A DNA stretch of 64,000 nucleotides from Minisyncoccota bacterium. Its GTDB lineage: Bacteria; Patescibacteriota; Minisyncoccia; Phycocordibacterales; UBA9973. A program made the position numbers and the translations under genes. The DNA is taken from positions 249,216 through 313,215 of the forward strand of contig JBAZKU010000001.1 of NCBI GenBank assembly GCA_041650615.1, written 5' to 3'. The notes beneath the pieces were generated by a model. The model was not told the DNA's origin. It saw nothing but the letters and a program-made list of their open reading frames with translations, and did not search any database. Positions 4,133 through 42,167 of this stretch are shown here, in pieces; within the stretch, counting starts at the first letter, position 1, and the number at the start of each line of letters is the position of its first letter.

Positions 4133-4729
4133 ATGAATGAAGAAAAAACAAAGCCTGCCTCGCCAAGTCAAGGCGGAGATAAATTCACTAAACAGTCGTT
4201 TTGGGAGCTTGTGCGTTTTGTGTTAATAGCCATAGCTATAGTCATTCCTATCCGTATGTTCATAGCTCAGCCTTTTATAGTCTCAGGTTCTTCTATGGAC
4301 CCCACGTTTGAGGACGGACAATATTTAATAATAGATGAAATATCTTACAGATTAAACAATCCGCAAAGAAATGACGTTGTAGTTTTTAGATATCCGAACG
4401 ACCCGACAAAATTCTTTATCAAAAGAATAATTGGACTGCCGAATGAAACAGTAGATATAAAAGGCACAGTAATTACCATAACCAATAAGGAAAATCCGGA
4501 GGGATTTATTCTTGACCAATCTTATATAAAAAATGCCGTGGAAAGTAATACGCATCTTGAACTGAAAAATGACGAGTATTTCGTGATGGGAGATAATAGG
4601 TCTGCCAGTTCCGATTCAAGATATTGGGGCGCAGTACCCAAAAATCTCCTGATAGGAAAAGTATTTTTACGCTTATTGCCAATAAGTGAGATAGGTATAT
4701 TGCCGGGCGATTATAAAAAAACTGAGTAA
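4133..4729 (+). CDS. lepB: signal peptidase I (bacterial LepB type)
   Basis: SGSSMDPTF (Ser box), RIIGLPNETV, GDNRSASSDSRYWG boxes; N-terminal TM. Confidence 0.85.
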   Translation: MNEEKTKPASPSQGGDKFTKQSFWELVRFVLIAIAIVIPIRMFIAQPFIVSGSSMDPTFEDGQYLIIDEISYRLNNPQRNDVVVFRYPNDPTKFFIKRIIGLPNETVDIKGTVITITNKENPEGFILDQSYIKNAVESNTHLELKNDEYFVMGDNRSASSDSRYWGAVPKNLLIGKVFLRLLPISEIGILPGDYKKTE

Positions 4730-8149: not shown

Positions 8150-10081
8150 TTAATATTTCATTCCATGAAAAAGGGCTTTTAAAATAACATCCAATTTCAT
8201 TGTCGCTACGCCTATAACTCTATCTCCTCCGCCGTAGTAAATATAAAGCAATTTATCTTTTACAACCATCCCGCAAGGGAATACCACATTATTAACAATT
8301 CCGCTTTTTTCATATTCTTCCACTGGTTCAAAAATCGGCTCGGTACTGCGCGCCAGCACTATGGCAGGATCTTTTGCGTCAAGCAAAACGCATCCCATAC
8401 GATAAGTATTATGACTTTTAGATACACCATGATAAAGCAATAGCCAGCCATATTTGGTTTTAATCGGCGGGGCGCAAATACCAACCTTAGAACTATCCCA
8501 AGTATTTGTTCTGGGTCCGATAATTCTTATGCATTTTTTTACCATTTCGTGCTTAAAATCCAGGGTTGATAAATAGTCGCCACAAACTTCATTACCTACG
8601 CGATGCAAAATAAAATAGCCCAAAGGAAATTTCTTGGGGAAGAGACAGGTGTCTTTATCATCAATCCCTTGCGGAGTAATGAGAAAAGGTTTTTCCCACT
8701 TCCAATTATGAGCAAGAAAATCTTTTTCCCCAATGGAAGAAATAGCTGCCCTCGGGGGACCAATACTGTCAAAAGCCGTATAACACATATAAATATTTTT
8801 ACCGATTCTAGTTAAACGGGGATCTTCACAACCTGAATTTTGATTATTGATTTTTTTATTTTCAAATTCCTCGCGCGGAACGTAAATAGGCGCAGATAAT
8901 CGTTCAATAATATCAATACCATTTTCCGTCATCGCATATCCCAAAACGGATGTATTATCCTGGGACATAGCGCGATATACTATGTGAATTTTCCCGTTTA
9001 GGGCAATAGAGGCTGGATTAAAAGTTGCTTTTTCTTCCCATTTATTTTCTGTTTTCGGAAGAATAATCGGATTTTGGGGAAAACGTTTGAAACTAAAATC
9101 GCTTTTGTATTTGAAATGTATACTGAAAATAAGGTCGTTTAAATTAACCCGAGCCAAACATACTGTCGTATCGGCTGCGCCGTAATATATGGTAAGCGTA
9201 TCTTTTTCAACCAAAGTTCCGGTTGGAAAAACTATATTTCCGACGTAGCCGGATAATTCGTAAAATTCTTCCGGCACAATAATAGGTCCGCCGGTCCGAC
9301 CTAATATTTTTTGAGAATCTGCTAAGTCAAATAAAACCGCTTCAATACCAAAGATCCTGTCAAGATTATTGGCTGAGGGAAAATAATTTTGAATATGGGA
9401 ATAAAGAAATAGCCAGCCATATTTGGTTTTAATTGGCGGGGCTCCGACTTCTATATGGTCATATGGCGAACGTTTTAAATCAATCATGCAACTATCCACA
9501 TTCTTTTCCCATTTTTCCCAAAATGACGGAGACCATAATTCTTCTATTCTATCCAGTTTGGCAATAACCACTTTAGCCGGAGGAGAATCGGTATGATATG
9601 AAAACATCACCACAATTTTTCCATTTATTCGTTCGGGAAACAGCGTCATGGCTTTGGCATTAAAGGGGGTGACCAAATGGCGCTCATCTATTTTTTTTAA
9701 ATCCTTGGAAAGAGCTACCGCTACTCTGATACCATCGGAGCTGAAAGGGTATTTGGAAAGCGCTGTATAAAAAGTGTAAAAAACACCCTCAAAATACGTT
9801 ATTCTAGGGTCTTCACAACCGAATTTTTCCCATTCTTCTTTGGGAATAATAAACGGCGCACGATCTTTGAAATGCACTCCATCTTTGCTTTTTCCTATGC
9901 CAATAGTTGAAATTTGGCTGGGATTTTGTAATTTATCCACCGCCGAAATAGCGCGATAAACTCCGTAAATATTTTTGCCGTATTTGATTGGGCAAAGATT
10001 AAAACTAGCAAATTTCTCCCAATAATGGTCTCCATCGGGAATTAATATCGGGTTGTACTCGGATTTTTTGACAACAAACAT
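8150..10081 (-). CDS. tandem two-domain GH130-family glycoside hydrolase/phosphorylase (beta-mannoside phosphorylase-like)
   Basis: Two repeats, each with 'GCEDPR' and 'APPIKTKYGWL(F/L)LY' motifs. Confidence 0.65.
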   Translation of the reverse strand: MFVVKKSEYNPILIPDGDHYWEKFASFNLCPIKYGKNIYGVYRAISAVDKLQNPSQISTIGIGKSKDGVHFKDRAPFIIPKEEWEKFGCEDPRITYFEGVFYTFYTALSKYPFSSDGIRVAVALSKDLKKIDERHLVTPFNAKAMTLFPERINGKIVVMFSYHTDSPPAKVVIAKLDRIEELWSPSFWEKWEKNVDSCMIDLKRSPYDHIEVGAPPIKTKYGWLFLYSHIQNYFPSANNLDRIFGIEAVLFDLADSQKILGRTGGPIIVPEEFYELSGYVGNIVFPTGTLVEKDTLTIYYGAADTTVCLARVNLNDLIFSIHFKYKSDFSFKRFPQNPIILPKTENKWEEKATFNPASIALNGKIHIVYRAMSQDNTSVLGYAMTENGIDIIERLSAPIYVPREEFENKKINNQNSGCEDPRLTRIGKNIYMCYTAFDSIGPPRAAISSIGEKDFLAHNWKWEKPFLITPQGIDDKDTCLFPKKFPLGYFILHRVGNEVCGDYLSTLDFKHEMVKKCIRIIGPRTNTWDSSKVGICAPPIKTKYGWLLLYHGVSKSHNTYRMGCVLLDAKDPAIVLARSTEPIFEPVEEYEKSGIVNNVVFPCGMVVKDKLLYIYYGGGDRVIGVATMKLDVILKALFHGMKY

Positions 10082-10087
10082 AAATTT

Positions 10088-11251
10088 TTATTTGAATTCC
10101 AATGATTTATTTTTCTCTAATTTTACTGCGCCATTTTTCTTCATACTGTTTATTAAATCTGAAAGCATTATAGAGGCAATACCTATATGCTTGTCTCCCC
10201 CGCCATAATAAACAAACAGTTTGCCATTTTTTACAACAGCCCCACTGGCGTATATAATCCCTTTTTTCCAGTCATTTTCATACCATTCATCCGGCTCAAG
10301 AATTGGATTCTGCGCCCGATAAAGAACTTTCTCCGGATTTTTTAGGTCAAGCAGAAGTGCTCCTAATTTATAGCGGCCGGAATCATCTTTATCCATAGCA
10401 TGATAAAGCAATAGCCAGCCATCTTTGGTTTTAATCGGTGGCGCAGCGGCGCTGCGGGTGCGTTTATGCCAAGCCACTACATGGTCCGGCAAAGATTGAG
10501 GATCAGGCGCATCTTTTCCTCTGGGTGTTTCTGATGTATCCAGTTTGTTTACAAAAGCAATAGCCACTCGTGCCGGGTCTCCTTTATCCAGATTATGAAA
10601 AATTGCAAACTTGCCATTTATTTTTTCCGGAAACAAAACCCAATTTTTTTGCCTGTCTCCCTCGTGGGAAAGATAAGAAAAATTTTCCCAAACCCATTTC
10701 TTGTTTAATAAATTTTCTTCCTTAATTGAAGTTACCGCCACTCGCATAGAATCCCATCCATTGAACATATTAAAAGTCATATATACATAACCATCTATCA
10801 AAACTGTACGCGGGTCTTCGCAACCGCCCCAGCCACCCCCGGAAGCATAAAGTACCGTATCATAGCGCGCGGGAGAAGTGTAAGGCCAATGTTTTTTCAT
10901 TTCTTCGGCATTTTCCACGAAATAAACCGGATAAGAAAGTCGTTCATCAAAGTTTATGCCATCTTTGCTGGAAGCATACCCAATGCGAGATATCCCATCC
11001 GCTCCCAATGCTCGGTAAAAAAGATGTATTCGTCCGCTGGAAGAAATAACAGCCGGATTAAAGACAGCATGAGATTCCCAATAATATGGTCGAGGTTCAA
11101 TAATTGGATTGCGAGGAGATCTTACAAGTTTCGGAGTTTTAGTTAGTTTTTTGCCTTTTGGCCGCCCTGTTTTAGAGACAATTTTAGTTTTTCTCTTTTT
11201 AACTATGATTTTTTTCTTTATTTCCTTTGATTTTTTCAATACTTTTTTCAT
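10088..11251 (-). CDS. GH130-family glycoside hydrolase/phosphorylase with a basic Lys-rich N-terminal extension
   Basis: GGCEDPR, APPIKTKDGWLLLYHA; N-terminal KKxKK low-complexity region. Confidence 0.65.
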   Translation of the reverse strand: MKKVLKKSKEIKKKIIVKKRKTKIVSKTGRPKGKKLTKTPKLVRSPRNPIIEPRPYYWESHAVFNPAVISSSGRIHLFYRALGADGISRIGYASSKDGINFDERLSYPVYFVENAEEMKKHWPYTSPARYDTVLYASGGGWGGCEDPRTVLIDGYVYMTFNMFNGWDSMRVAVTSIKEENLLNKKWVWENFSYLSHEGDRQKNWVLFPEKINGKFAIFHNLDKGDPARVAIAFVNKLDTSETPRGKDAPDPQSLPDHVVAWHKRTRSAAAPPIKTKDGWLLLYHAMDKDDSGRYKLGALLLDLKNPEKVLYRAQNPILEPDEWYENDWKKGIIYASGAVVKNGKLFVYYGGGDKHIGIASIMLSDLINSMKKNGAVKLEKNKSLEFK

Positions 11252-12884: not shown

Positions 12885-13832
12885 CTATTTTATTTCGTTT
12901 GAATAATCAATGCTTTCTAAAATGGTCATATTGTGTTTACTAAGATAATTATTGACCACAAAAATAGCTCCGATAATAGCAAGAGCAATCAATCCATTTG
13001 TTATTAAATCGGGATGTTGGTGTTTGATTTTAATAAAAATATTTAACAATAGGGCAAAAATAATTATTCCAAAAATAACGTAAAGAATCGTGTTTGTAGA
13101 ATTGCGAGGCGAAGCAAAAATTTTCTGCCAAAATGCGACTTTTTGATCTTGGTCGGCAGGAGTATTTATTTCAGCCCCAAGAACATCAGATGACTTTTCC
13201 GCATTTGCAACACCGGGAGTTGTTTCCGCTTCCGTTTCCTTAGACTGAATTCGCTTTGTTGTGTTTTTAATAGGATTTGCGTAGACTTGCGCCACAAATA
13301 CTGTTTCTCTTCCTTTGTAAATGCCGGTAGCCACGCCAGTGCCGATTTCTGTATAATTTCCTTTTACAATATTCGCTTTATGAGTAGGACTTGCCATCCA
13401 GGCCTCTGTAACATCTTTTGAATCGCTGAAATTAATGGCAAGGTTTTCTCCCGCATACTGATATTCATATCCCACTTTTTCCAGCCAATACCAAGGAGTT
13501 TTCCCTTCCGGACTGGTATGGGCAAAATAACTTTTTGCCGCCATATCTTCCGCTTTCATTTCTGCCGCTTCATTTAAAATCGGATTAACTACAAGGGTTT
13601 GAAGGTTTTGCTCCTTACGCTCTTGGTTGGTAAGTTGAGCCAAGACTGCCGGCAACACAGTTGCCATACCTCCTGTTATATTTATGCGAGTAAGAGTCGG
13701 TATTAAAAAAGCTAGTGTCTCCAAAAAGATTACGACAATGACAATGTTGCGAATATTACTGCCGCGCAAGATGTGCGGTCGATGCTCGTTGCCTTCATGA
13801 GGAATAAAATGTTTTTTAAACCAAGAAATCAT
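12885..13832 (-). CDS. CAP/SCP (cysteine-rich secretory protein-like, YkwD-type) domain membrane-anchored protein
   Basis: YFAHTSPEG...AGENLA...AWMASPTHKANI motifs of the CAP domain; N- and C-terminal TM segments. Confidence 0.6.
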   Translation of the reverse strand: MISWFKKHFIPHEGNEHRPHILRGSNIRNIVIVVIFLETLAFLIPTLTRINITGGMATVLPAVLAQLTNQERKEQNLQTLVVNPILNEAAEMKAEDMAAKSYFAHTSPEGKTPWYWLEKVGYEYQYAGENLAINFSDSKDVTEAWMASPTHKANIVKGNYTEIGTGVATGIYKGRETVFVAQVYANPIKNTTKRIQSKETEAETTPGVANAEKSSDVLGAEINTPADQDQKVAFWQKIFASPRNSTNTILYVIFGIIIFALLLNIFIKIKHQHPDLITNGLIALAIIGAIFVVNNYLSKHNMTILESIDYSNEIK

Positions 13833-13895
13833 TATTTTATATTATATATAATAAAACCCCATTTGTAAAGATGAGGTTTTATTTGTCAGTTTATA

Positions 13896-14687
13896 TTATT
13901 TATTTAAAATTGCGCGAGTGAGCGTTCCCACGATTCCGTCAGCTTCTAATTCATTTGCAATCTGGAATTTGATAGTAGCTGTTTTAGTCAGAGAACCGAA
14001 TTTTCCATCAGCAATTCCGCAATCATAACCGGCCGTCTTTAAGAATTTCTGAAGTTCCATAACTTCATTTCCTTGGGAACCTTCTTTAAGCAACGATGTA
14101 AAGTTAAATTTCTCAGTACCAAGCACTTGTCCGGAAACTACTTTTAAAATATAAGTGACAACGGTTGGATTAAGCGCAGTGTCATGAATCGTGCCTGTTA
14201 GAGTGTATGTTCCAACAGGATAATTGCCAGGGATCCTCATATCGGTACTGATATTGGCTAAATATTTTTGCGCGCCATCCAAAACTTTTATGGCAGTCGT
14301 GCCATTGGTTTCAATATAAGCGAAAGGTTTATTGCCACTGGCAACATCTTTGAAAAAAGATTCATAAGCCGCCGGATAATTTACTGAATAATAATTCTGC
14401 AAAGAAACAGTTTGCCCTGAAGCAGGCAATAATTTCAATTCAACGATTTCAGCCTTAAGATTTTCTGAAGCTGTTGACCCTGAAGAAAACTGAATTGCAT
14501 AATGTGTACTCGCACTACCGCTAGTGTTTAGAATATAAGCGCCACCACTCTGGGTCATCGAAACGCCATTAGCTGTGAAGCCGGAAATATTGAGAGTCGG
14601 AGATGTAGTACTGGTTGCAAAAGCAGATCCCATAGAAACAAAAAAACTGCCAAAAATAAACACTGCGATAATGAAATATTTTTTCAT
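13896..14687 (-). CDS. secreted protein with C-terminal peptidoglycan-binding (PG_binding_1) domain
   Basis: Signal peptide; C-terminus GSQGNEVMELQKFLKTAGYDCGIADGKFGSLTKTATIKFQ. Confidence 0.55.
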   Translation of the reverse strand: MKKYFIIAVFIFGSFFVSMGSAFATSTTSPTLNISGFTANGVSMTQSGGAYILNTSGSASTHYAIQFSSGSTASENLKAEIVELKLLPASGQTVSLQNYYSVNYPAAYESFFKDVASGNKPFAYIETNGTTAIKVLDGAQKYLANISTDMRIPGNYPVGTYTLTGTIHDTALNPTVVTYILKVVSGQVLGTEKFNFTSLLKEGSQGNEVMELQKFLKTAGYDCGIADGKFGSLTKTATIKFQIANELEADGIVGTLTRAILNK

Positions 14688-14741
14688 AATAATAAATTTA
14701 AATTATTTAATACCTCTAGTGTATATTAAATTAAAATTTTG

Positions 14742-16028
14742 TCAAATTAATTTTCTATAAGCGTAAAGACAGATAGAAATTACAAGAGCTATTAGGAAAA
14801 CCGGAATAGGACAATATTCATTTAAGACCAAAAGCACAAGTATAGCCAGAAGAGAAGAACTTCCAAAGAAAAGATAAAATCTATTTTTTATTTCTTCCTC
14901 CCCCACTAAATCTCTCTCGTATTTTTTTCTAAGCCACAATCGCCAAATTAAATAAATTACCAAAAGTACAAGCAAGGCAATCAAAGTGCAAATGGACAAT
15001 ATATCGCCCCAACCTGAAACAATAGCGGTAGCTAAATTATTATCCAAATTCGGAGTTTCTTCCGCAACCGTAGTGCTTTCTCCTAATACAGCTCCCTCAG
15101 AAGAATTTCCCAATCCAGACCCGTTATTATTTTCAGTAGAAGCTCCAAGCACTAAGCCAGCTTGAGCAAGTAAAGGCATTGTGAATTGATGTTCAACACT
15201 TACTGTTGGTGGCGAAGCGCGTGAGACAACACGATATAAATAAGTTACTCCGGGAGTTAAACCAGTCAAAACCATTTCGTGATTCATAACTTTTCCTGGG
15301 TCTTCAATATTAGAAAATGGGTAACCAAAATTTGTAGCATTTAAATCAAGATTATAAGGTCCAGGCATTGGCCCATAAACCACCTGGCTAGTAGCTAATT
15401 TATTTGTATTCCAAGTTATTGTAGCTGACCCAGTTCCTTCTACATTTGTTAAGTTAAGTGCTTGTTCATTAAATACAATAAGTATTATAGTAGATCCCCC
15501 ACCCCGGGAACCATGAGAAGACCCGCTAATTGAAGTAGTTTCATCTGTGGTCGTTTCATCGCCCTCAAAACCAACTTGCAAATTAAAGCTCATTGATTTG
15601 TTTTGATATTCATTTCCAGATTCATTATCAAATGTTGCCACAAAATCAAAGGTGGTACTTTCTCCAGCTGGAACTTGCGATAAAATTACTTCTGATTTAT
15701 TAAAGAAATTAGAAAAAGTATCATTATATAGAATATTCTCACCTTGTTTTATTTTAATGTGTACTACGTCTCCTAAACCATCATCATTTACCACATTTAA
15801 AGCGCGAGTTATGACACTATGTGGAACAGAAGTCTTATTGTTTAATATTACAAAACGACTGACAGAAGCGCCCGGAGCAAAACTTGCTTCACCGAAAAGA
15901 GGCGCTGTTTCAAATTGAACAGTTGGTACTTCAGCATTTGCCTGCCCGCAAAAACTTGCAAATATTGCTGTTATTATTGTGAGATATATTAATTTTTTGA
16001 AAATTTTGTTCATAATATTTTTATTCAC
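14742..16028 (-). CDS. hypothetical secreted surface protein with C-terminal membrane anchor
   Basis: Signal peptide, Thr/Ser-rich linker, two C-terminal TM helices. Confidence 0.4.
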   Translation of the reverse strand: MNKNIMNKIFKKLIYLTIITAIFASFCGQANAEVPTVQFETAPLFGEASFAPGASVSRFVILNNKTSVPHSVITRALNVVNDDGLGDVVHIKIKQGENILYNDTFSNFFNKSEVILSQVPAGESTTFDFVATFDNESGNEYQNKSMSFNLQVGFEGDETTTDETTSISGSSHGSRGGGSTIILIVFNEQALNLTNVEGTGSATITWNTNKLATSQVVYGPMPGPYNLDLNATNFGYPFSNIEDPGKVMNHEMVLTGLTPGVTYLYRVVSRASPPTVSVEHQFTMPLLAQAGLVLGASTENNNGSGLGNSSEGAVLGESTTVAEETPNLDNNLATAIVSGWGDILSICTLIALLVLLVIYLIWRLWLRKKYERDLVGEEEIKNRFYLFFGSSSLLAILVLLVLNEYCPIPVFLIALVISICLYAYRKLI

Positions 16029-17493
16029 TTATTACAGGTTCACTTGCCGGAGCTTCTACTGGAGCTTCTACCGAAGGCTGACCAACCTCTGGCCGTGGTT
16101 CTTCTGAAACCACTGCTTCTTCTGCAACTGGTACTGATTCTATTTCTGGAACTATTGTTTCCTCTATAACTGGTTCTTCTTGGCTTGTTTCAGGCGTGGT
16201 AGACTCTTCTGTTACAACTTCTTCAACAACTTCCGTATCTGAAGCCGGAGGTGTTTCCTCAGGCGCTATTGTTTCTGTTGTTTCATTTGTAGCTTCTTCT
16301 TGTTCTGTTTCTGTGCCACTAGCCAAAACTTCTTCCGGTTGTTCCTCTTCTGTAATAGCTTCTTCAATCACAGTTTCCTCTTTTGTGTTTTCTTCTGTAA
16401 CAGTTTCATCTTCAACTACTTCACTTGCTACGGTTTCTTCTGCGATAATAGGTTCTGTCAGTGTAAGTTCTACAATCGGTTCTTCTTCAATAATTTCTTC
16501 CACTAATTCATTTGATACGCCCGGTGTTGGTATTGGGTCAACCCAAGATCCGACTCCATCCGGAATTCTGGCATATGAATATCCCTCCGGTTTTTCTTCC
16601 GTATAAGAATAAGAATCAACAACAATACTGGAAGCTATAGGATAACCGGTCGCCAATCTGACACTATCCGCATCATTATTCAAATTAAAATCAGGATCTC
16701 CGTTTCTATATACAACTAGAAATCCATGAGCTCCGATTACAGTCCCGCCTGTATTAGTATTGGAATTTTGAATATAAAGCTTGTGAGAATCATCATTATC
16801 ATAAATTGCCCAACCGGATAAATCAAAAGCTACACTGCTATTATTATAAAGTTCTACCCATTCACCGCCGGGCATTAAAGCATCATCCAAACCACTTGGA
16901 TTTGAAATAAATTCATTAAGAACTACAGCTTTGCCGATTCTTATTGATCCTAATTTTTCTTTTGTACTGCTAAATCCGCTAGAGGCATCAGGCAAATTAT
17001 CTTGCCAAGTTGTGAAAGTCCATTTAAAGAAACAGGTCTTGCCCCAGACACTGGGCGGGGCATCGGAAGCAATCGTAAAATTAAAATTCCAAGCAGTATC
17101 AACTGTAGCCGTCGCTACCGAAGTGAATCCTTGTATTGGTCCTGTATAAGTATCCGTAGGACTAGTAGCTGTCATTGTTATATAATCACAAGCCGAGGTA
17201 CTGCTTCCTGAAAGAGTGGTTTGGACTGTATACTGAGAATCCAAACTGCCGGTGTTAGAAATATGTATGGAAGTTGAAGTAGTATCAGTCGGATACATCA
17301 GACCGGAAGTAAAGTTACTCATGGAATCTAGACCAATATCTAAAATTCCAGCAGAAAGAGAATTATCGGTTAAGCTGTCGGTATCACTGAAATAAGCATT
17401 CGTTGCGCCAATATTGAGATTGAAAGTAATCAAGCTTAAAATAAGAGCAAGAGCAATAAAAATCTTATTTTTTTGTAATATCAGATTATACAT
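16021..17493 (-). CDS. lamin-tail-domain (LTD) surface protein with SipW-cognate signal peptide and long acidic E/T/V/P-rich tail
   Basis: N-terminus ...GATNAYFSDTDSLTDNSLSAGILDIG; LTD core NEFISNPSG...EWVELYN...DLSGWAIYD; about 170-aa polyacidic C-terminus. Confidence 0.55.
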   Translation of the reverse strand: MYNLILQKNKIFIALALILSLITFNLNIGATNAYFSDTDSLTDNSLSAGILDIGLDSMSNFTSGLMYPTDTTSTSIHISNTGSLDSQYTVQTTLSGSSTSACDYITMTATSPTDTYTGPIQGFTSVATATVDTAWNFNFTIASDAPPSVWGKTCFFKWTFTTWQDNLPDASSGFSSTKEKLGSIRIGKAVVLNEFISNPSGLDDALMPGGEWVELYNNSSVAFDLSGWAIYDNDDSHKLYIQNSNTNTGGTVIGAHGFLVVYRNGDPDFNLNNDADSVRLATGYPIASSIVVDSYSYTEEKPEGYSYARIPDGVGSWVDPIPTPGVSNELVEEIIEEEPIVELTLTEPIIAEETVASEVVEDETVTEENTKEETVIEEAITEEEQPEEVLASGTETEQEEATNETTETIAPEETPPASDTEVVEEVVTEESTTPETSQEEPVIEETIVPEIESVPVAEEAVVSEEPRPEVGQPSVEAPVEAPASEPVISE

Positions 17494-18073
17494 TTTCTTC
17501 TATTTTATTTTCTTCTTTAGGTTTCTCGCCCTGAGCCTGTCGAAGGGTCTTCATTCTTTTCGCTTCAACAATAATTTTTTTTACTTCATCAAATATAATT
17601 ATAGCTGACGGAATGACAATTAACACGACAAAGCCCGCGGGTTTTTTAGCAACATCTACGGCATAACCGACATAAGGTATTTTTAAATACATTTTACCGA
17701 TTATATCTTTTCCTAAAATCTCGCGCGTGTCGTTGGAATTATTAGCATCTCCTTTGGTAATGTAAACTATAGCTCCGTTTTGCACCCGCGTTTCCACAAT
17801 ACGGTGCGTGACTGGCGGTTTGATTTTACTATAAGGTCCGAAGGTTACGATGTCGTCAATTTTATATTGCTCCGATGGTTTAACTATAATCATGCTGCCT
17901 GTTTTGATAGTCGGTTCCATTGAACCGGATAAAACGACATATGATTTAAAACCTCCCGGAATCGGCAAAATGGAAATAAGAAAAAACACAATCACCAGGA
18001 GAATTAAAATTCCCAGAACGCGATAAGCTATATTTCCTATTTTGTTTAAATTTGTTTTCATTTTATTATTCAA
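17486..18073 (-). CDS. sipW: signal peptidase I, SipW (archaeal/eukaryal-like) type
   Basis: TM anchor then VLSGSMEPTIKTGSMIIV, typical of SipW/S26B peptidases. Confidence 0.7.
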   Translation of the reverse strand: MNNKMKTNLNKIGNIAYRVLGILILLVIVFFLISILPIPGGFKSYVVLSGSMEPTIKTGSMIIVKPSEQYKIDDIVTFGPYSKIKPPVTHRIVETRVQNGAIVYITKGDANNSNDTREILGKDIIGKMYLKIPYVGYAVDVAKKPAGFVVLIVIPSAIIIFDEVKKIIVEAKRMKTLRQAQGEKPKEENKIEENV

Positions 18074-18144
18074 CCCTTATTCGCCCAGCCCTTTTGAAAA
18101 AGAGCTGGACTGAAAGGATTGAAACTAAAGCTTGGATGTTTTAA

Positions 18145-19263
18145 CTATGGATTCTGTTCAAGAACAAAATCAATATTAAACGTTGTCCCATCGCTTTGAG
18201 CTTGGTTGATACCAGTTGCATCTGGGAATGACCAACTTAGATATACTTGCCCATTATCACCTCCATCTAATGGTCCTAAATCAACACCTGTTGCTAATTG
18301 AGCAAAAGTTTCTGGTGTTCCATTTACGAGCAATTTCAAATATTGGCTCATCTCTCCTTCTGTTGCTCCACCTGTTAGATCACCAGCTACAGATTCAGGT
18401 GAGTAAAGAGTATTTTCATTATCAACAACATTGCTGACTTTTAGCTTTAATGTTCCATTAATATTACCCTCATTTTGGTATTTAATTGTGGCAGTAGTCC
18501 CAGTATCAGTAGGTTTAATGTTTGTAATGTTAAACTGACCAGTTAAACCATCATCACACCAATAAGGTGCACTAGTAGTTGTATAACTTGCATTAACTTC
18601 TACTAAATCATGCTTTGTTTTAGAATTAACATCATTTTGATTCCAACTACCATCTTGTGTTGCTTGGAATTGAATCCTAAGAGCATCAATTTTAGCTTTA
18701 GTTGTAAAACCTAATGTATACAAATTAATATTTTCAATTACATCAGTATTAGCTGTTGGTAAAGCTAAATCAACAGTCTGCCAAGTAGAACCATCATAAA
18801 CTCTGATTCTTGCATCGTTTACACCAGTTCCTCGTTGCCATTCAAATTTAAGAGAAGCATCAGTTACGGTTGCTCCAGTTGGGATGTCTGCCATTGCAAA
18901 ATCTATAAATTCAAGCATATGCCAACCATCGTCTTGGGGGCCATCAGTAGGAGCTCCAAAAGATGTATACCAACCATAGTTACTTGTATAACTACTATCA
19001 TCACTAGCTGATAACATAGCTAATTCAGTAGGAGTTAGCTGATCTGTAACTGTACCCGTTGTATCTATAGTAACATCCTCTGGGTGTAGAGAATCCATAT
19101 CAGCTGTGGTTGCTTCAGGGCATTCTAATTGCAAGTTTAGGGAACCAGCGGTAATAGTGTTGCCTGTTGAAGTTTCAGTGTCACTGAAATATGCCAACGT
19201 TGCTCCTGTAGCAATTGCTCCAACAACTACCAATACCGCTAGACTTTTAATAATTTTTTTCAT
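18145..19263 (-). CDS. TasA/camelysin-like secreted protein with SipW-cognate class signal peptide
   Basis: N-terminus MKKI...ATGATLAYFSDTETSTGNTITAGSLNL. Confidence 0.5.
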   Translation of the reverse strand: MKKIIKSLAVLVVVGAIATGATLAYFSDTETSTGNTITAGSLNLQLECPEATTADMDSLHPEDVTIDTTGTVTDQLTPTELAMLSASDDSSYTSNYGWYTSFGAPTDGPQDDGWHMLEFIDFAMADIPTGATVTDASLKFEWQRGTGVNDARIRVYDGSTWQTVDLALPTANTDVIENINLYTLGFTTKAKIDALRIQFQATQDGSWNQNDVNSKTKHDLVEVNASYTTTSAPYWCDDGLTGQFNITNIKPTDTGTTATIKYQNEGNINGTLKLKVSNVVDNENTLYSPESVAGDLTGGATEGEMSQYLKLLVNGTPETFAQLATGVDLGPLDGGDNGQVYLSWSFPDATGINQAQSDGTTFNIDFVLEQNP

Positions 19264-19288
19264 AATAATTTATTCGTTAAGCGGTTAA

Positions 19289-19855
19289 TTATATTTGTGT
19301 AAGAGTAGCTGTTATACCAAAACCACAGCTATCACCTTGAATTTCATTTCCGACTGTATCAGGAATTTTATAACTCAATGTATAGTCTGCATCAGCTCCT
19401 GCACTAAGAGATCCTAGAGACAAGGGTGTAGAAAGACCAGCCAAAGAATTCCAACCATAAACAGTCACTGAATTATAATCAACTTTTACTTGCATGGTAG
19501 CACATAAATCACCTTCACCAGGACCACCAGTTGAGTCTCCCCCGGTTTGCTCAGGCTCAGTTAAACCATTATCATCATTTGATGTTTGAGTAACAGCAAA
19601 AGTTAAACTACCATCAATAGAACCAGCATTAGTAATTGTACCACTTACATCTTCACTACCACCTGGGACTACATTTGCAACTGTTATCACAGCAGTACCT
19701 GCTAAATCATTGTCATCAATTTTCAAATCCAAAGTTCCAGCAGAAATTGTATTTCCTGTGGAAGTCTCTGTATCACTAAACAAAGCTGTTGTTGCACTTA
19801 CTGCTACTACGGCTACAAGTGCGATAGCGCTCAAACTTAATATAATTTTTTTCAT
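19289..19855 (-). CDS. small TasA/camelysin-like secreted protein with SipW-cognate class signal peptide
   Basis: N-terminus ...SATTALFSDTETSTGNTISAGTLDL. Confidence 0.5.
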   Translation of the reverse strand: MKKIILSLSAIALVAVVAVSATTALFSDTETSTGNTISAGTLDLKIDDNDLAGTAVITVANVVPGGSEDVSGTITNAGSIDGSLTFAVTQTSNDDNGLTEPEQTGGDSTGGPGEGDLCATMQVKVDYNSVTVYGWNSLAGLSTPLSLGSLSAGADADYTLSYKIPDTVGNEIQGDSCGFGITATLTQI

Positions 19856-19871
19856 GATTTATTTATTCTTT

Positions 19872-19892
19872 GCGTTAGGCAAGACCTAACGC
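19872..19892. repeat. REP-like hairpin gcgttagg-caaga-cctaacgc sharing the 13-nt core TAGGCAAGACCTA with the hairpins flanking the RAYT-like gene
   Basis: Direct sequence comparison with 3135..3157. Confidence 0.45.
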
Positions 19893-20025
19893 ATAATTAA
19901 TTTAATAATAATTTTTTGTTTTTTAACCCTCGACCTTTTTTTTTGCTTTTAAAGTGCAAATGGAAACTTTTTATTGTTAAAAAGCTTGCATAAGTATTCT
20001 AAAAGCATTAATTTTTAAAAAACAA

Positions 20026-20066
20026 AAACCGCAAACCGAAAAAACTTTCGGACTGCGGTTTTTGTT
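20026..20066. terminator. bidirectional Rho-independent terminator (aaaccgca-aa-ccgaaa / tttcgg-ac-tgcggttt + T-run)
   Basis: 14-bp interrupted stem followed by TTTTGTTCTT; A-run on the other side. Confidence 0.5.
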
Positions 20067-20488
20067 CTTGTTGAGCAAACATTGATTTGTAAAATTTGCT
20101 TTTAACATAAATCAAATTCTTTATTTTTTTGTTCTTATCCTGGTATCTTCGCGTATTCTTGGCTCCCGGCAAGAATTTTGATTTATTCCCATACTTAATT
20201 ATATGGGTCTAACATTACCTGCTACCCTTAAATATGTCAAACGTGCATCTGTGAATAAAAAGTGGATAAAAAGAGGCTATAATTACAAGGGTAGAAAGCT
20301 CAGTAATGGACACTAAATAAGGGAACTACTTTATAAAAAAGTAATTATTTAGTGTCCATTGCCAAGCTTTCAAAAATCTTTTAGCAGTCTAGCACAAACT
20401 AGACACACTGTCAACAGTGTGTGCTAATAAAAAAACTAGAAAAACAACTTCCCTCTTTTGAAGTTGAAATGATACTTCATGAAAATTT

Positions 20489-20511
20489 ACGAAGGATTAT
20501 CCTTCGTTTTT
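20489..20511. terminator. hairpin acgaaggat-t-atccttcgt + TTTTT just downstream of the dinD-like stop; second copy of the 7610 hairpin
   Basis: Perfect 9-bp stem, T-run on the + strand. Confidence 0.45.
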
Positions 20512-20517
20512 ATTTGA

Positions 20518-21555
20518 TTATGTTAAAAGTTTTTTATTTTTTTCTTTCTTTAATTCTTTAATATGCTTTTCAGGTAATAAGTTTTCTGGAGTGGTTCCAC
20601 CAATATCTTTGATAGTTTGCCTAACTTTACCACCAACCATAAAATGAGCCCTTGATGCTTGGTCATCCCCTTTTATATTATCTTTTTTAATTTTTTCGCC
20701 AGTTTGTGTAATGCGAAATAAATTAGCAGCCAATTCGGTTGTCCCAGCTCTATCTAAAAGTTCTCCCTTTCTAATACCTTTCTTTGTTTCAATTTCATTT
20801 AATGGCATTCCATACAATCCCTTATACCCAGCATCATTAAATGATCCAAATTTAGTGACTCCTGCTCTTTTGGCAGTGCTAAAAAGTTTTTTATTTTCTA
20901 CTGTTACTTCGTCACGAATAAAAAGTCGCTTATTGGAAGCAGAAAGTTTTTCAAATACTTCTTGTTTCCTTGTTTGAACAGCAAAATACGTTTGAGCTAG
21001 TGCAATTTCTTGTTTATTTGGATCACCATTTTGTGCGATCAAATAACAAGCAAAACGGTCTAGTTTCCAATCTCTTACCTTTCTTATTGTTTTTGAGCCA
21101 ATTTCTACCATTTTCCCCAAAAGGTGAAAATGGTTATCCACATTCTGACCACTATTGACACATGCCCTTGCAGCTCTACCAATAACTTCCTCGGCTTTTT
21201 CCCATTTTAGATAACCCAAAAGAGGCATTAATTCGCGAGCTTGCCAATACTCAATGCCATTTTTATCAACTTTTTTTATATTTTCAAAACCCTTATTCAA
21301 AGAAACTTCTATAATTTTATCATTCATATTATTTAAATTTTCTCTTTGTAGCTTTTTTGGCCAGCATAAGATGCTTGATTGCCAATCTCTTTTTGGTTTT
21401 ATGAGAATGTCTTGATTTATTTTTTGGACTAAGGGTTGTTCCTCTTTTTGCCATATAATTATATTTTTGTTATTGAAATAATAATATTCATTATAACTTA
21501 AATTAACAAAAATTGCATTATTTGTTATATTTAGATAAATTGTTCTTTTTAACAA
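20518..21555 (-). CDS. DinD-like (DNA-damage-inducible protein D / BRO-N family) protein
   Basis: YWQARELMPLLGYLKWEKAEEVIGRAARACVNSGQ...KLDRFACYLIAQNGDPNKQEIALAQTYFAVQTRKQE closely parallels E. coli DinD. Confidence 0.6.
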   Translation of the reverse strand: MLKRTIYLNITNNAIFVNLSYNEYYYFNNKNIIIWQKEEQPLVQKINQDILIKPKRDWQSSILCWPKKLQRENLNNMNDKIIEVSLNKGFENIKKVDKNGIEYWQARELMPLLGYLKWEKAEEVIGRAARACVNSGQNVDNHFHLLGKMVEIGSKTIRKVRDWKLDRFACYLIAQNGDPNKQEIALAQTYFAVQTRKQEVFEKLSASNKRLFIRDEVTVENKKLFSTAKRAGVTKFGSFNDAGYKGLYGMPLNEIETKKGIRKGELLDRAGTTELAANLFRITQTGEKIKKDNIKGDDQASRAHFMVGGKVRQTIKDIGGTTPENLLPEKHIKELKKEKNKKLLT

Positions 21556-25521: not shown

Positions 25522-25674
25522 TTGTTCATTATAACTTTATATTTGTATTTAACAACAGCTGAGTTTTCCACTGACTCTGAATTCAGGAGAGATTCCGGTT
25601 TATATTCCGGCAGGAAAATAAAAAAGTCCTCCGATTTAAGTCGAAGGACTTTTGCTTTTTTGACATTCCCCCTT

Positions 25675-26079
25675 TTAAACTGCGGGAACTTTTTCTTTTT
25701 CCGATAAAACTCGTTCAATTGTGACCAAAAGGTCAAGGGAGTCATATGGTTTATAGAGAATCTCTGCAACCCCTAAATTTTTCAAGGTTGTTACATCTTT
25801 CTGATTAAGGCAATAATAGCTTGACAGTATGATGGCCTTAATTTTTGAGTTTTGAAATTCTGTTTTGTTATTTTGAATAAACTCCAAAACTTCAAACCCA
25901 TCAACCTTTGGTAAAAAAGCTTCCAATATAATCAGATCAAAGGTCTCTTGTTGAAGAACATTAATCGCTTCTTCCCCGTCAGCTGCCATTTGAACCTTAT
26001 ACCCCTCACGAGAGAGTAAGGCATTTAATACTACCCTTATCCCTCCTTCATCTACAATAAGAACCCTTGTATCTTTCAT
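25675..26079 (-). CDS. single-domain response-regulator paralogue with atypical active site (phospho-acceptor Asp replaced by Glu; DD pair replaced by DE)
   Basis: Aligns along its length with 24120..24521; LIILEAFLPKVDG versus LVILDIKMPKVDG; identical C-terminus EKEKVPAV. Confidence 0.7.
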   Translation of the reverse strand: MKDTRVLIVDEGGIRVVLNALLSREGYKVQMAADGEEAINVLQQETFDLIILEAFLPKVDGFEVLEFIQNNKTEFQNSKIKAIILSSYYCLNQKDVTTLKNLGVAEILYKPYDSLDLLVTIERVLSEKEKVPAV

Positions 26080-35643: not shown

Positions 35644-36090
35644 TCAAGTTCCTCTTCTAATTTTATTAGTTTCGTAGTGATTTTCAGTTATAGCAACTAC
35701 ATATAAAATCCTTTTTGGCTCAATATCAAAATAAAAAATACGACCAGTGCTTTGTAAAAAGAGTTCTCTTATTTCAATACCTTCATCAATCTTACTATAA
35801 AGCTTTTTATAATCACCCGAGTTTTCTACACTTTCATTTCTTATATTATTTCTTTGAAAATCAGCTCGTGTGTAAACCTTGGTTCCAATTTCTCTTAAAA
35901 TAGAAAGAGCTTTATTCCCTTTATTTTTACCAAGTATGTCTATTTCACAACAATTTTTGTTGTATTTTGAGAAAGATATTAAATAAGGTTTAGTTTCAGG
36001 TTCTTCTGTCTCTTGGGATACTTCGGTCACTTTCTGAGGTATCTCATTATAACTCTCAACCTGTGTAACCTCATCAGGAATTTCTGGCAT
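35644..36090 (-). CDS. hypothetical protein; C-terminus resembles a RelE/ParE-fold toxin (putative toxin partner of the Panacea protein)
   Basis: C-terminal GRIFYFDIEPKRILYVVAITENHYE pattern; 5-bp gap from the upstream Panacea gene. Confidence 0.3.
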   Translation of the reverse strand: MPEIPDEVTQVESYNEIPQKVTEVSQETEEPETKPYLISFSKYNKNCCEIDILGKNKGNKALSILREIGTKVYTRADFQRNNIRNESVENSGDYKKLYSKIDEGIEIRELFLQSTGRIFYFDIEPKRILYVVAITENHYETNKIRRGT

Positions 36091-36095
36091 AAGAG

Positions 36096-36596
36096 TTATT
36101 TTTTAGCTATTTCTAGTTTTTGAGAATAAAAGCTTTTCATTGTTTTGGGAGAAATTTCATTTTCTGAATTTTTAGAACTCTCTAGTCCTTCTCTAGCTTC
36201 TTTCCACGGTGTCTCATTATGTGTAAGCATTTCTAAATAATCAGCATCTAATCCACCATACACAGACCAAATCTCATCTAAAAGCTTTTTAGCTTCAGTA
36301 GGGATTGTTTTTATTAAAGTTGCGTCCGCTTCTTTTTGTATATAATTAAATCCAAAATCTTTGTATTTAACATACAAACTTTTGATTGCTGGTCCGTGAA
36401 CCCACGCTTCAATTTTTTCATTGAAAAGTTTTTGATTATTAAACACCAAAAACCAAGCTTGTGCATAGTAGACAAGTTTCTGAAGCTTTTTATTAGTTAT
36501 TCCTTTCTTATCTTTATTAGCTTTATCTATAAAGTATTCTGCGACAGTCAAAGCACTTACTTTTTTAGTGACTAAACTCATAATTGTATTATACAC
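36096..36596 (-). CDS. Panacea-domain (DUF4065, SocA-like) putative antitoxin
   Basis: KLQKLVYYAQAWFLVFNNQKLFNEKIEAWVHGP is characteristic of DUF4065. Confidence 0.5.
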   Translation of the reverse strand: MYNTIMSLVTKKVSALTVAEYFIDKANKDKKGITNKKLQKLVYYAQAWFLVFNNQKLFNEKIEAWVHGPAIKSLYVKYKDFGFNYIQKEADATLIKTIPTEAKKLLDEIWSVYGGLDADYLEMLTHNETPWKEAREGLESSKNSENEISPKTMKSFYSQKLEIAKK

Positions 36597-36661
36597 TTTT
36601 CTACTTAAATTTACAAAGAGGTGTTGATAAGTATTGTAAACTAAAGTAAACTATATAATAT

Positions 36662-38311
36662 ATGGCTTTTGAATTAGATACAGAAAATAAGAGCAAAAAT
36701 TATTTAGATGAAAAAGAGCTTTTTATTCTATATTATTTATCAAAAAATAAACACATTTCAACACAAGGAAGTAATGTCTTTAGACCTAATGAAAAAACTA
36801 TTTACCATAAACCTGACGGTCTTAATGACGTAGCTGAACTAGAAAAAAATCTTAATAAACATATATTGGAAGCTGAAGAAAAAAGAGAAAAAAAATTACA
36901 ATCTTCAATTGTAGCTAATTATTTAATTGGATTAGGTAGAACTTTTGATGAAAAAAGTTTTGCTGTCTTCGGAGATGCTGATTATAGTTTGGTTGAAGGC
37001 GGATTTTTGACAGATGATTTTCATAAGGAAATGTATGATTATTTAGCTTTATCAAAAGAAAAAAGAGAAAAAGATAAAAAATTAAACAAAGAACAAAAGA
37101 TATTTCTTGAGAATATAATTTCTAAAAAATTAGACCTCAATGACATAGAAACAAGGGTTAGATTTACTAAATTAGCTAACCCACCTATTAAATCTTATCA
37201 GGAAGCTATATTAAATAAAAAAGCAGAAAAAGAATTTATTGAGTTAGTAAATAAGTTAATCAAAGAACACGATGGCGGTAAATGGAATACCGAAGATGTT
37301 GAAAAATTTTTAGAGATATATTACAAGCACAACAAAGAACAATTTAAGAAAAATGTTACTACTCCAAGAACGTGGCTTTTTGAAGACAACCAAACCAAAC
37401 TTGCCAATCTTATTTTTGCACATACTGATTTTCATTTATTTATAAAAGATAATACAAAATTAAATAATTACTTAAAAGAATATATAAAACTTTTCAAAAA
37501 AGATGAGCTTGATAAATTAAGTAATAAAGGTCTAACTGGAAGCTTTTTTACAACAAGTAGATTGATACCTCTAAATAATCAACTTTGGGGCTTTGAAAAA
37601 CAAAAGGAAATTTTAGTACAACATATTGAAAAAAACTTTAATGAGTATAAAAAAAGTAGCTTACAAATAAGCCATCCATATTTTGAACCTGTTTATGAAG
37701 GCGATACAGAAGAAGGAATAACAGAGATTACTATATCTCCTAAAAATGAAGATGAGGCAGACCGATTTTTATTTGTGCATACAATAATAGCTCTTGAATA
37801 TAAGAAATTTCTTGAGATTAAAAGTTTATTTTATGGATATATGGATTTGTTTGATTTATATGACAGAGGTTTTGTATTTCAAATTAAATTACCTAAAGAA
37901 GTAAATAATAAAGATGAAGAAATAACAGAAATTTCAAAACCAGTTAAAAAATCAAACATTAAACCTTTCTTGGTAACAAAAAACAAAAAGGGTTATCTAA
38001 AGTTTGCAAAAAATAGCCCCAATATATTTATTGGGAGTATAACAACTCGGAAATTTAGACTACTACAAGCACTTATGGAGCCAATAGAAACCATTGGTAC
38101 AGCCAGAAAAATAGACAAAGTTTTTGAAGCAATTAAATTACCAAGAGATAACAATGACCCAAAACTAAAGGATAATTACCTTAGTCGTGACAGGAAGCTG
38201 TCAATTATTCAATACACAATAAAAGAAATACAAAAGATAAAAAAACTACAAAGAAAAATACACTTTTCGTTTGGTGAAAATAACCAAATAATCTGGGCAG
38301 ATTTTACTTAA
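36662..38311 (+). CDS. large hypothetical protein (549 aa), island cargo
   Basis: No recognisable motif; Lys/Glu-rich. Confidence 0.35.
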   Translation: MAFELDTENKSKNYLDEKELFILYYLSKNKHISTQGSNVFRPNEKTIYHKPDGLNDVAELEKNLNKHILEAEEKREKKLQSSIVANYLIGLGRTFDEKSFAVFGDADYSLVEGGFLTDDFHKEMYDYLALSKEKREKDKKLNKEQKIFLENIISKKLDLNDIETRVRFTKLANPPIKSYQEAILNKKAEKEFIELVNKLIKEHDGGKWNTEDVEKFLEIYYKHNKEQFKKNVTTPRTWLFEDNQTKLANLIFAHTDFHLFIKDNTKLNNYLKEYIKLFKKDELDKLSNKGLTGSFFTTSRLIPLNNQLWGFEKQKEILVQHIEKNFNEYKKSSLQISHPYFEPVYEGDTEEGITEITISPKNEDEADRFLFVHTIIALEYKKFLEIKSLFYGYMDLFDLYDRGFVFQIKLPKEVNNKDEEITEISKPVKKSNIKPFLVTKNKKGYLKFAKNSPNIFIGSITTRKFRLLQALMEPIETIGTARKIDKVFEAIKLPRDNNDPKLKDNYLSRDRKLSIIQYTIKEIQKIKKLQRKIHFSFGENNQIIWADFT

Positions 38312-38628
38312 TTTCCTTGATGCCTAGAGGGAAAAATTAAAATGGCTTTTGATATGCACAGAGGGATATTATAAACCCTCTTATTTTTTTTATTTATAAA
38401 TAATAAATAAAAACAAAAAACCCTCTCGTCCCCTCTAGCTGATTTTTGCTTAGAGGGTTCTTCATAATGCTTTTATGCAGGATAAGAAAGAAACAAAAAA
38501 AGAATTAAATCCAAAACTATTGGATTTATCGCCTGAAGATAGTCGTGATTTAGGTAGTTTCTTTACCTTGCTTATAAAAATAGATAAGCGAGTAAATCCT
38601 GCAAATTATCAACTTAATAAAAAAGAAT

Positions 38629-39747: not shown

Positions 39748-39785
39748 AAGTTGCTATGTAAAGTATTGTCAAGTATAATATAAAT

Positions 39786-40164: not shown

Positions 40165-40167
40165 GTT

Positions 40168-42162: not shown

Positions 42163-42167
42163 AACTT

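Follow-up and report, generated by a model that had tools for sequence, protein, structure and literature searches.

A TasA/SipW-type operon of Candidate Phyla Radiation bacteria with four predicted TasA-fold paralogs, one of them strand-less and membrane-anchored

We analyzed a 64,000-nt stretch of contig JBAZKU010000001.1 (GenBank assembly GCA_041650615.1; positions 249,216 to 313,215, forward strand), referred to here as the window. It comes from an uncultured, ultra-small bacterium of the Candidate Phyla Radiation (CPR; Patescibacteria, Candidatus Paceibacterota), has a GC content of ~35%, and contains a bacterial RNase P RNA. The subject is a minus-strand run of seven consecutive open reading frames (ORFs) at 12885-19855, which a first-pass annotation made from the sequence alone had read as a SipW-type signal peptidase operon with TasA-like substrates. 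All seven ORFs were present on the minus strand exactly where that annotation had placed them. In run order, they encode proteins of 188, 372, 195, 490, 428, 263, and 315 amino acids (aa). The 490-aa ORF overlaps each of its neighbors, the 195-aa and the 428-aa ORF, by 8 nt, and the remaining gaps measure 25-71 nt. Such overlaps and short gaps are consistent with a single transcription unit that covers at least 19855 to 14742, in which the overlapping genes are predicted to be translationally coupled. A strong promoter-like site (11/12 matches, 13869-13841) was observed ahead of the last gene of the run. The first five genes are the following, with the evidence for each assignment.

19289..19855, minus strand: minimal TasA-like subunit, 188 aa, mature part ~164 aa, acidic (TIGR04088, PF12389, AlphaFold2 (AF2) fold)
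18145..19263, minus strand: TasA-like subunit with a ~190-residue insertion, 372 aa (TIGR04088, PF12389, hhalign)
17486..18073, minus strand: archaeal/endoplasmic reticulum (ER)-type (S26B, SipW-type) signal peptidase I, 195 aa (TIGR02228, catalytic motifs)
16021..17493, minus strand: TasA-domain protein with extensions (LTD protein), 490 aa (PF12389, PF00932, hhalign)
14742..16028, minus strand: predicted donor-strand-less TasA-fold membrane protein (FN3TM), 428 aa (hhalign, reciprocal hidden Markov models (HMMs), AF2)

Three of these proteins carry the N-terminal motif that the first-pass annotation had picked out, and the motifs read as described there. Across the predicted cleavage site (↓), the sequences were ATTA↓LFSDTETSTGNTISAGTLDL in the 188-aa protein, ATLA↓YFSDTETSTGNTITAGSLNL in the 372-aa protein, and ATNA↓YFSDTDSLTDNSLSAGILDI in the LTD protein. 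A regular-expression scan found the motif in only three real ORFs of the window; a loose expression also caught a 61-aa ORF (25522-25707), which was supported by no TasA-type HMM. Matches to TasA-type HMMs were obtained for only four ORFs of the window, all inside this run, and the clustering of motif and matches in a single run is not a matter of chance. The curated cutoffs were 19 bits for TIGR04088 (cognate_SipW) and a gathering threshold of 22.5 bits for PF12389 (TasA/camelysin, Peptidase_M73). Both were exceeded by the 188-aa protein (27.1 and 31.4 bits, respectively) and by the 372-aa protein (37.9 and 23.0 bits), and the LTD protein passed PF12389 with 28.9 bits.

In the 188-aa protein, cleavage is predicted at ATTA↓LFSDTE, and the mature part consists of a putative donor strand (residues 25-35), a linker (36-44), and a jelly-roll core (45-187). 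NCBI holds this exact sequence as 'TasA family protein [Candidatus Paceibacterota bacterium]'. The mature protein contains neither His nor an HExxH motif, and the lack of His makes a role as a metalloprotease unlikely. The AF2 model, which was based on an alignment of 61 homologs, showed a beta-sandwich (pLDDT 85.7), in which residues 21-40 were of low confidence and unpacked against the domain. The top two PDB matches in Foldseek were the TasA fibre 8aur_A (E 3.9e-5, TM-score 0.55) and the TasA monomer 5of1_B (E 8.8e-4), and archaeal AbpA (7UEG) was found lower in the ranking; the structure check proposed in the first-pass annotation thus returned a TasA jelly-roll. Among the strand-bearing proteins, this fold search covered the 188-aa protein, and the relation of the 372-aa, LTD, and FN3TM proteins to TasA was obtained via profile alignment. 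In a search of PDB sequences, the profile of the 61 homologs reached TasA at 2.2e-7 and archaeal AbpX at 2.3e-4, aligning '...NTFTAGTLDLKV...PGD' with 'DATFASGTLDLSA...PGD' of TasA. When the 188-aa and 372-aa proteins were searched singly against PDB sequences, no matches were obtained, and TasA was reached by the profile only. In TasA, residues 28-38 form the donor strand and residues 39-47 the linker (PMC9674648); the equivalents in the 188-aa subunit are residues 25-35 and 36-44. The most conserved columns of the 61 homologs were F26, S27, D28, T29, E30, N35, A39, G40, and L44, all of them invariant or nearly so. The corresponding sequence after the cleavage site, xFSDTE...N..xAGxLDL, is invariant or nearly so among the homologs, aligns to the donor and linker region of TasA in 8AUR, and occurs in the three proteins of the operon named above, but not in FN3TM. 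On this analysis, the 188-aa protein is the putative major fibre subunit.

The 372-aa protein consists of a donor-strand N-terminus (residues 25-44), an insertion (~48-236), and a jelly-roll core (240-371), the last of which aligned to the TasA-like profile in hhalign with 99.9% probability (E 7e-33). The insertion gave no Pfam match, a match to DNRLRE being sub-threshold (E 0.009). The same gene was also found in an ortholog locus, L085. The LTD protein begins with a signal peptide and an ATNA↓YFSDTD donor segment, which was matched by a donor-segment HMM built from the 61 homologs (E 2.2e-5). A full jelly-roll follows to about residue 165, then a Lamin-tail domain (189-298; PF00932 LTD, 50.2 bits), and finally a tail of ~190 aa with about 28% Glu. 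Residues 9-165 aligned to the TasA-like profile with 98% probability (E 1.6e-13), covering a complete TasA domain. Neither a transmembrane (TM) segment nor an LPXTG anchor was found in the LTD protein, and it may be a subunit that acts as tip, adhesin, or nucleator. The mature part of every strand-bearing paralog contains exactly two Cys residues. C118/C177 of the 188-aa protein and C102/C154 of the LTD protein occupy equivalent jelly-roll positions, and C48/C236, the only Cys residues of the 372-aa protein, bracket its ~190-residue insertion. The paired Cys residues suggest structural disulfides, which would be unusual compared with the consensus of the wider family.

The 195-aa peptidase (VVLSGSMEPTIK) has TM segments at its N- and C-terminus and carries the catalytic motifs LSGSMEP (Ser), VTHRIV (His), and KGDAN (Asp). 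It scored 112.4 bits against TIGR02228 (archaeal/ER-type signal peptidase I; cutoff 51.85) but only 26.9 bits against TIGR02227 (LepB; cutoff 47), ruling out an ordinary LepB, the outcome that the first-pass annotation had set against its own proposal. Against NF046067, the Bacillus SipW equivalog, 115.8 bits were obtained, below the cutoff of 190. The label 'SipW-type' thus holds for the S26B archaeal/ER class and not for the equivalog; judged by these scores, the enzyme is a SipW-like member of the S26B archaeal-type family, but no SipW equivalog. Its best solved relatives were human SEC11A and SEC11C (E 1.5e-9, PDB sequences), and the three motifs aligned with SGSMEP, IVHRV, and KGDNN of SEC11A. 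Ser-His(-Asp) catalytic residues are therefore found in place of the Ser-Lys dyad of LepB. A LepB gene was located 13 kb from the peptidase gene.

4133-4729, plus strand: canonical signal peptidase I, LepB (TIGR02227 140.3 bits, PF10502 155.9 bits)

Because a genuine LepB is encoded in the same window, the SipW-type peptidase is a second, dedicated enzyme, as is SipW in Bacillus. Here, as in 46/49 of the CPR loci described below, genes with the motif flank the peptidase gene.

The fifth gene product, FN3TM, had been listed in the first-pass annotation as a TM-anchored surface protein. The TM anchor was seen; its TasA fold, which makes it a fourth paralog without a donor strand, had been missed. 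FN3TM has an ordinary signal peptide (…QANA↓EV), a predicted jelly-roll N-domain (residues 35-165), an FN3 domain (185-283), and three TM helices (346-427), with disordered linkers between the N-domain and FN3 and, 50 residues in length, between FN3 and the TM helices. It matched PF16656 with 44.6 bits, and the AF2 model (pLDDT 80.9) showed three C-terminal TM helices. In hhalign, a family alignment of 57 FN3TM sequences reached a probability of 97.5% against the TasA-like profile (E 5e-12), FN3TM residues 35-152 corresponding to subunit residues 44-183. The N-domain alone gave 97.5% as well (E 7.6e-12), and in this alignment the signal-peptide cleavage site of FN3TM falls on the '...AG↓TLDL' junction. 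As a negative control, the peptidoglycan (PG)-binding protein of the same operon, which is likewise secreted and beta-rich, gave 1.9% against the TasA-like profile. Reciprocal HMM matches between the FN3TM and subunit families were obtained in independent loci, with E-values down to about 1e-6 (1e-6 to 5e-7). Invariant columns coincide, since P64, N76, N170, and Q173(M) of the subunit correspond to P52, N64, N139, and Q142(M) of FN3TM. Through the alignment, the secondary structures of the two independent AF2 models match almost one-to-one; the exception is subunit strand 55-60, which has no DSSP-assigned counterpart in FN3TM.

Other searches did not show this relation. FN3TM gave no match to PF12389, as did 56 of the 57 family members, the remaining one matching at E 0.002. 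The N-domain profile did not return TasA from PDB sequences, and a Foldseek search with the whole model, in which the N-domain was not isolated, gave generic two-domain beta-sandwiches (WxLIP, transglutaminase, RbmA) at a TM-score of about 0.2. Members of the family are annotated merely as 'fibronectin type III domain-containing' or hypothetical. At E<=1e-30, the family comprises 380 representative clusters (50% identity), including a small number of large FN3-repeat proteins. Profile alignments and models together indicate that the operon encodes four TasA-fold paralogs, of which three are strand-bearing and one is strand-less and membrane-anchored.

The distribution of this arrangement was analyzed in 80 genome loci, which were fetched with the peptidase as the query. 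Loci L001-L064 are CPR-type (Parcubacteria groups, Saccharibacteria, Moranbacteria, Kaiser-, Buchanan-, Roizman-, and Shapirobacteria, and CPR3, including a few contigs whose labels are different or doubtful), and the 16 loci L065-L080 belong to Firmicutes/Actinobacteria. One to three TasA-like genes were found directly upstream of the peptidase gene in 46 of the 49 loci with enough upstream sequence, and an FN3TM-type gene was found downstream in 26 of the 39 loci with enough downstream sequence. The donor motif was found in none of the FN3TM-type ORFs of the CPR loci. An HMM of the FN3TM TM region gave just 2 matches and was of no help in finding the family at other loci. In Firmicutes/Actinobacteria, no FN3TM-type gene occurred downstream of sipW in the 12 loci with enough downstream sequence; an anchor-type match was located upstream of sipW in the Bacillota locus L074. 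Searches that started from homologs of FN3TM (34-39% identity) or of the subunits (46-70% identity) returned the same gene order. As read from these loci, the order of one to three TasA genes, SipW, a donor-strand protein, and FN3TM recurs across CPR lineages. The product of the gene next to the peptidase gene on its downstream side has, in nearly every case, a signal peptide and after it a donor-like motif. In some loci, as here, a jelly-roll follows the motif; in others, 'AGxW.P' and other domains come straight after it with no jelly-roll HMM match, an arrangement that is TapA-like.

In 15 loci, mainly from Shapirobacteria and related Microgenomates, the peptidase ORF was 300-800 aa long; those of Shapirobacteria and related Microgenomates measured 355-800 aa. 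The architecture was established from the sequences read for L050, L060, L063, and L064, in which one frame encodes the catalytic domain, the second TM segment, a basic cytoplasmic loop, a third hydrophobic segment, and the cognate motif. These ORFs end in FN3/LTD-type domains, and a TasA jelly-roll was undetected in the four. The motif reads '...SKPTNA↓YFSDTAVVGDNTF' in L050 and '...TQAKA↓LFSDTVVV' in L060. In the long ORFs of L035, L046, L059, and L014, it was weaker or lacking, and further elongated ORFs were found in L052, L053, and L062, that of L062 being near-identical in length to that of L060.

L050:5901-7775, L060:7971-9683, L063:7908-9626, L064:3762-4829: long peptidase ORFs, clear in-frame fusion
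L046:7959-9986, L059:7875-10265, L035:141-1226: long peptidase ORFs, motif weaker or none

The fusion recurs in independent metagenome-assembled genomes, and such in-frame fusions tie the peptidase to the downstream donor-strand protein. In the fused enzyme-substrate proteins, the third TM segment is predicted to act as a signal peptide, with cleavage in self or in trans.

The last two genes of the run encode the PG-binding and CAP domains that the first-pass annotation had named, and both assignments were confirmed.

13896..14687, minus strand: secreted protein with C-terminal PG_binding_1, 263 aa (PF01471 51.9 bits)
12885..13832, minus strand: membrane protein with CAP/YkwD domain, 315 aa (PF00188 65.2 bits)

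The CAP protein also scored 110.8 bits against TIGR02909, under its cutoff. A CAP gene occurs within 3 kb downstream of FN3TM in 5/22 loci. The PG_binding_1 gene follows FN3TM in L083 and L084, the latter being a short duplicate contig of L083, but in only 1/22 other loci. This low recurrence marks both as variable accessories, and a role of the PG-binding protein as a cell-wall tether is possible. A TasA-like reading of the PG-binding protein was dropped on its hhalign value of 1.9%.

We then compared the operon with known systems. The tapA-sipW-tasA operon of B. subtilis likewise has a dedicated archaeal/ER-type peptidase among its substrates, beside a housekeeping LepB; the sipW-tasA parallel drawn in the first-pass annotation is therefore upheld, since such a peptidase stands among TasA-fold substrates and beside LepB here as well. 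The substrates of the two operons have the AxFSD/AFND...AGTLDL N-terminus and the jelly-roll in common (PMC9674648). The second strand-carrying protein of the operon is TapA in B. subtilis and the LTD protein here, which resembles TapA solely by its TasA-like N-terminal strand. None of the seven proteins matched TIGR04087 or any TapA model (NCBIfam, E<=0.1). The former had been proposed in the first-pass annotation as a check for SipW, but we take it to be the model of YqxM/TapA, not of SipW. In contrast to B. subtilis, the gene order differs, three strand-bearing TasA-fold paralogs are present, and FN3TM, which lacks the strand and carries FN3 and three TM helices, is without a counterpart in Bacillus (downstream of sipW, 0/12 Firmicutes/Actinobacteria loci).

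The sipW-bsaA-bsaB-bsaC operon of C. perfringens likewise combines SipW with several TasA-family paralogs (PMC11580942). BsaA polymers are attached to the surface via the membrane, not via peptidoglycan; their subunits lack LPXTG, and the membrane anchor of the fibre is unidentified (PMC11580942). The membrane attachment of BsaA fibres thus gives a membrane base a precedent as a need. Unlike the C. perfringens operon, the present one encodes a candidate anchor, and it has no counterpart of the VWA protein. An Asn-Glu-Lys isopeptide locks the strands of BsaA (PMC11580942), whereas the CPR subunit family has no conserved Lys. Asn35 is nearly invariant among the 61 homologs, and no Lys column of the mature region exceeds 69% or is invariant; a BsaA-type isopeptide lock was therefore rejected, although the BsaA positions were not directly aligned. 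Sortase-type anchoring was also excluded, as no operon protein has a C-terminal LPXTG signal and no ORF of the window contains the sortase motif TLxTC. The archaeal bundling pili (ABP) of Pyrobaculum (AbpA/AbpB, PDB 7UEG; AbpX) are likewise built of TasA-superfamily jelly-rolls by donor-strand insertion, and a larger accessory protein adjoins the pilin gene in ABP loci, but a dedicated signal peptidase is not found there (PMC9245690). A strand-less membrane-anchored paralog is undescribed for ABP loci.

The chaperone-usher pili (Fim/Pap) offer an analogy only, in that one strand-less, groove-bearing subunit caps a chain end. These pili polymerise by N-terminal donor strands, and FimH/PapG have an acceptor groove but no donor strand. 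Their strand-less subunit, an adhesin, sits at the distal tip, and they depend for assembly on a periplasmic chaperone and an outer-membrane usher. The families were not homologous in the tests made here; moreover, the strand-less subunit of the CPR operon is predicted to be anchored in the cytoplasmic membrane, and neither a chaperone nor an usher was evident.

From these results, we propose that the operon encodes a TasA-type donor-strand-exchange fibre of CPR bacteria, sortase- and usher-free, with FN3TM as a strand-less membrane base, a reading to which we assign a probability of about 0.55. After Sec export, the SipW-type enzyme would cleave the precursors at A-T-x-A↓[LY]-F-S-D-T, by homology with TasA/SipW, and cleavage would expose the N-terminal segment that aligns to the TasA donor strand. 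The strand of each subunit would then insert into the beta-sandwich of the next, the 188-aa protein polymerising as the shaft, and the 372-aa and LTD/acidic-tail paralogs would join as minor, decorating, or capping subunits. Mature FN3TM would start at the point where the donor-strand segment ends, retaining the sandwich core, FN3, and the three TM helices. With an acceptor domain and without a strand, it could take no place in a chain but the strand-accepting end, and this end of the fibre it would hold at the cytoplasmic membrane, replacing the TapA, sortase, or usher solutions of other systems. The fibre itself is the safer part of this proposal, and we consider it probable; the anchor role of FN3TM is held more tentatively, at slightly less than even odds.

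Several points weigh against this proposal. Everything beyond homology in the fibre and anchor model is what we infer, and this applies to fibre formation and to host attachment alike. A strand-less base gives a polarity that is the reverse of the TapA-nucleated Bacillus model, and the reversed polarity would require either distal subunit addition or a base that captures a preformed fibre. FN3TM also retains a stretch equivalent to the self-complementing strand of TasA, so its groove could be permanently self-filled. A detectable anchor-type gene was absent from 13 of the 39 CPR loci with enough downstream sequence. Finally, the LTD protein gave no match to TIGR04088 at E<=0.1. The test by this model proposed in the first-pass annotation therefore held for the 188-aa and 372-aa proteins and failed for the LTD protein, even though Pfam and hhalign place the latter in the TasA family.

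An alternative with the same homology and synteny evidence behind it is that FN3TM is an assembly factor, i.e., a membrane-tethered chaperone or platform like TapA, CapP, or an usher, rather than a static anchor. FN3TM would then hold strands or subunits only briefly, and the fibre would be retained otherwise, for example by the PG-binding protein or through the acidic tail that ends the LTD protein. TapA and CapP are indeed accessory chaperone-like proteins in TasA systems (PMC10151520, PMC13082335), and the PG_binding_1 gene follows FN3TM in the window and in L083/L084. TapA, however, works by donating a strand, which FN3TM does not have; the PG-binding gene occurs in few loci; and a three-helix anchor with long disordered linkers fits a tether no less well than it would a catalyst. 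We regard an assembly factor as unlikely.

The TasA-like proteins may instead stay monomeric, as adhesins associated with the wall or S-layer or as camelysin-like proteases. The SipW-type peptidase would in that case be needed only because LepB copes badly with an aromatic residue at P2', and inefficient LepB cleavage of TasA-type sites with Phe at P2' has been described (PMC10269814). The N-terminal donor segment is nevertheless the most conserved part of the family, and it is unpacked in the 188-aa model, although the monomer model is otherwise a closed globular domain. The family name, Peptidase_M73, speaks for a protease, but a zinc protease is implausible for a mature protein without His or HExxH. 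The best structural match was the fibre form 8AUR, and several paralogs with a strand-less one in the same operon suit the logic of a heteropolymer. Monomeric proteins are thus a distinctly poorer explanation, which we think improbable. Least probable, with very little in its favor, is that FN3TM is an unrelated receptor or adhesin that shares the operon and whose generic beta-sandwich resembles TasA by convergence or too weakly to count: the missing PF12389 matches (56/57 members) and the failure of PDB sequence and fold searches to return TasA agree with it, but it is opposed by profile-profile matches of 97.5% (E about 1e-11) in two set-ups against 1.9% for the control, by the reciprocal HMM matches in independent loci, by the near one-to-one secondary structure with coinciding invariant P, N, N, and Q/M columns, and by translational coupling and a gene order conserved across CPR classes.

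The 5' region of the operon contains further features. The first-pass annotation had described a REP-like hairpin there.

19871..19893, minus strand: hairpin with a 10-bp stem in the 5' leader (-14.6 kcal/mol, z -5.1), ~15 nt upstream of the first ATG

The hairpin is real and stable; its reading as REP-like was rejected, because it occurs as one copy in the window, with up to 3 mismatches allowed, and has no counterpart ahead of the orthologous genes of L085 and L086. It was also absent among the other inverted repeats of the window. Upstream of the operon, a gene-free stretch of 660 nt (19856-20517) contains a promoter-like site, TTGACA-17-TAGACT (20414-20386, minus strand), and downstream of this site a 78-nt near-perfect hairpin (20295-20371; -38.4 kcal/mol, z -9.4). 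A terminator-like 23-bp stem followed by a U-run was found at about 20017-20069 (-29 kcal/mol, z -6.5). These structures are unrepeated in the window, and Rfam gave only sub-threshold chance matches on the 660 nt; the stretch could be an unannotated small RNA or a mobile-element remnant. Directly upstream lies a DinD homolog (20518-21555, minus strand; NF008573 318.9 bits, Bro-N domain) that is extended at the N-terminus by ~80 residues, and a bidirectional terminator-like hairpin (20489-20507) separates it from the operon.

Elsewhere in the window, positions 36001-44000 have a GC content of 27-30%, compared with 34-39% in most of the window, and a strongly positive AT skew. The segment is possibly a foreign island, or it may differ from its surroundings in coding strand or content. 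Three tRNA-Ala genes (anticodons TGC, GGC, and CGC) are clustered by the RNase P RNA at 50869-51885. The RNase P RNA itself is short and bacterial (51542-51845, 111.7 bits), with a 31-nt inverted repeat (51413-51501) just upstream and a terminator-like repeat (51846-51885) just after it. Two adjacent ORFs of 643 and 387 aa (8150-11251, minus strand) contain three copies of APPIKTK(Y/D)GWL(L/F)LY(H/S), two of them in the longer ORF; the arrangement resembles paralogous domains or genes in tandem.

For this organism, the TasA-SipW pairing was already evident from automatic annotation, and PF12389 had been noted in Patescibacteria (PMC9245690). TasA-family neighborhoods have been described as often containing fibronectin domains and signal peptidases (BsaA preprint, PMC11580942). 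In the literature searched, the distribution note in PMC9245690 was the only mention of this CPR cluster; descriptions of a strand-less TasA-fold paralog with a membrane anchor, of a conserved cluster in CPR, or of fusions between peptidase and substrate were not found. What is new here is the fourth TasA-fold protein, FN3TM, together with the conserved cluster and the fusions.

How fibres of the TasA family are retained on cells is an unsettled question, and the anchoring role of TapA in Bacillus is unclear. FN3TM, operon-encoded and conserved, is a concrete and directly testable candidate for such an anchor. The fusions of SipW-type peptidases with their substrates provide a natural 'Rosetta stone' for enzyme-substrate pairing, usable for the study of SipW specificity. 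The surface biology of CPR bacteria is barely known, type IV pili being the sole attachment organelle studied to date, and the cluster, with 380 clusters in its anchor family, points to a second, widespread surface-filament system. As a broader and tentative view, which we hold with less confidence than the anchor role, these lineages may share a CPR pilus made wholly of TasA-fold parts, namely a shaft, displayers of variable domains, and a strand-less base, with a dedicated and sometimes substrate-fused peptidase. If so, it would represent a third route, beside sortases and chaperone-usher systems, to an anchored donor-strand pilus, and it would be a candidate organelle by which ultra-small bacteria attach to hosts or surfaces.

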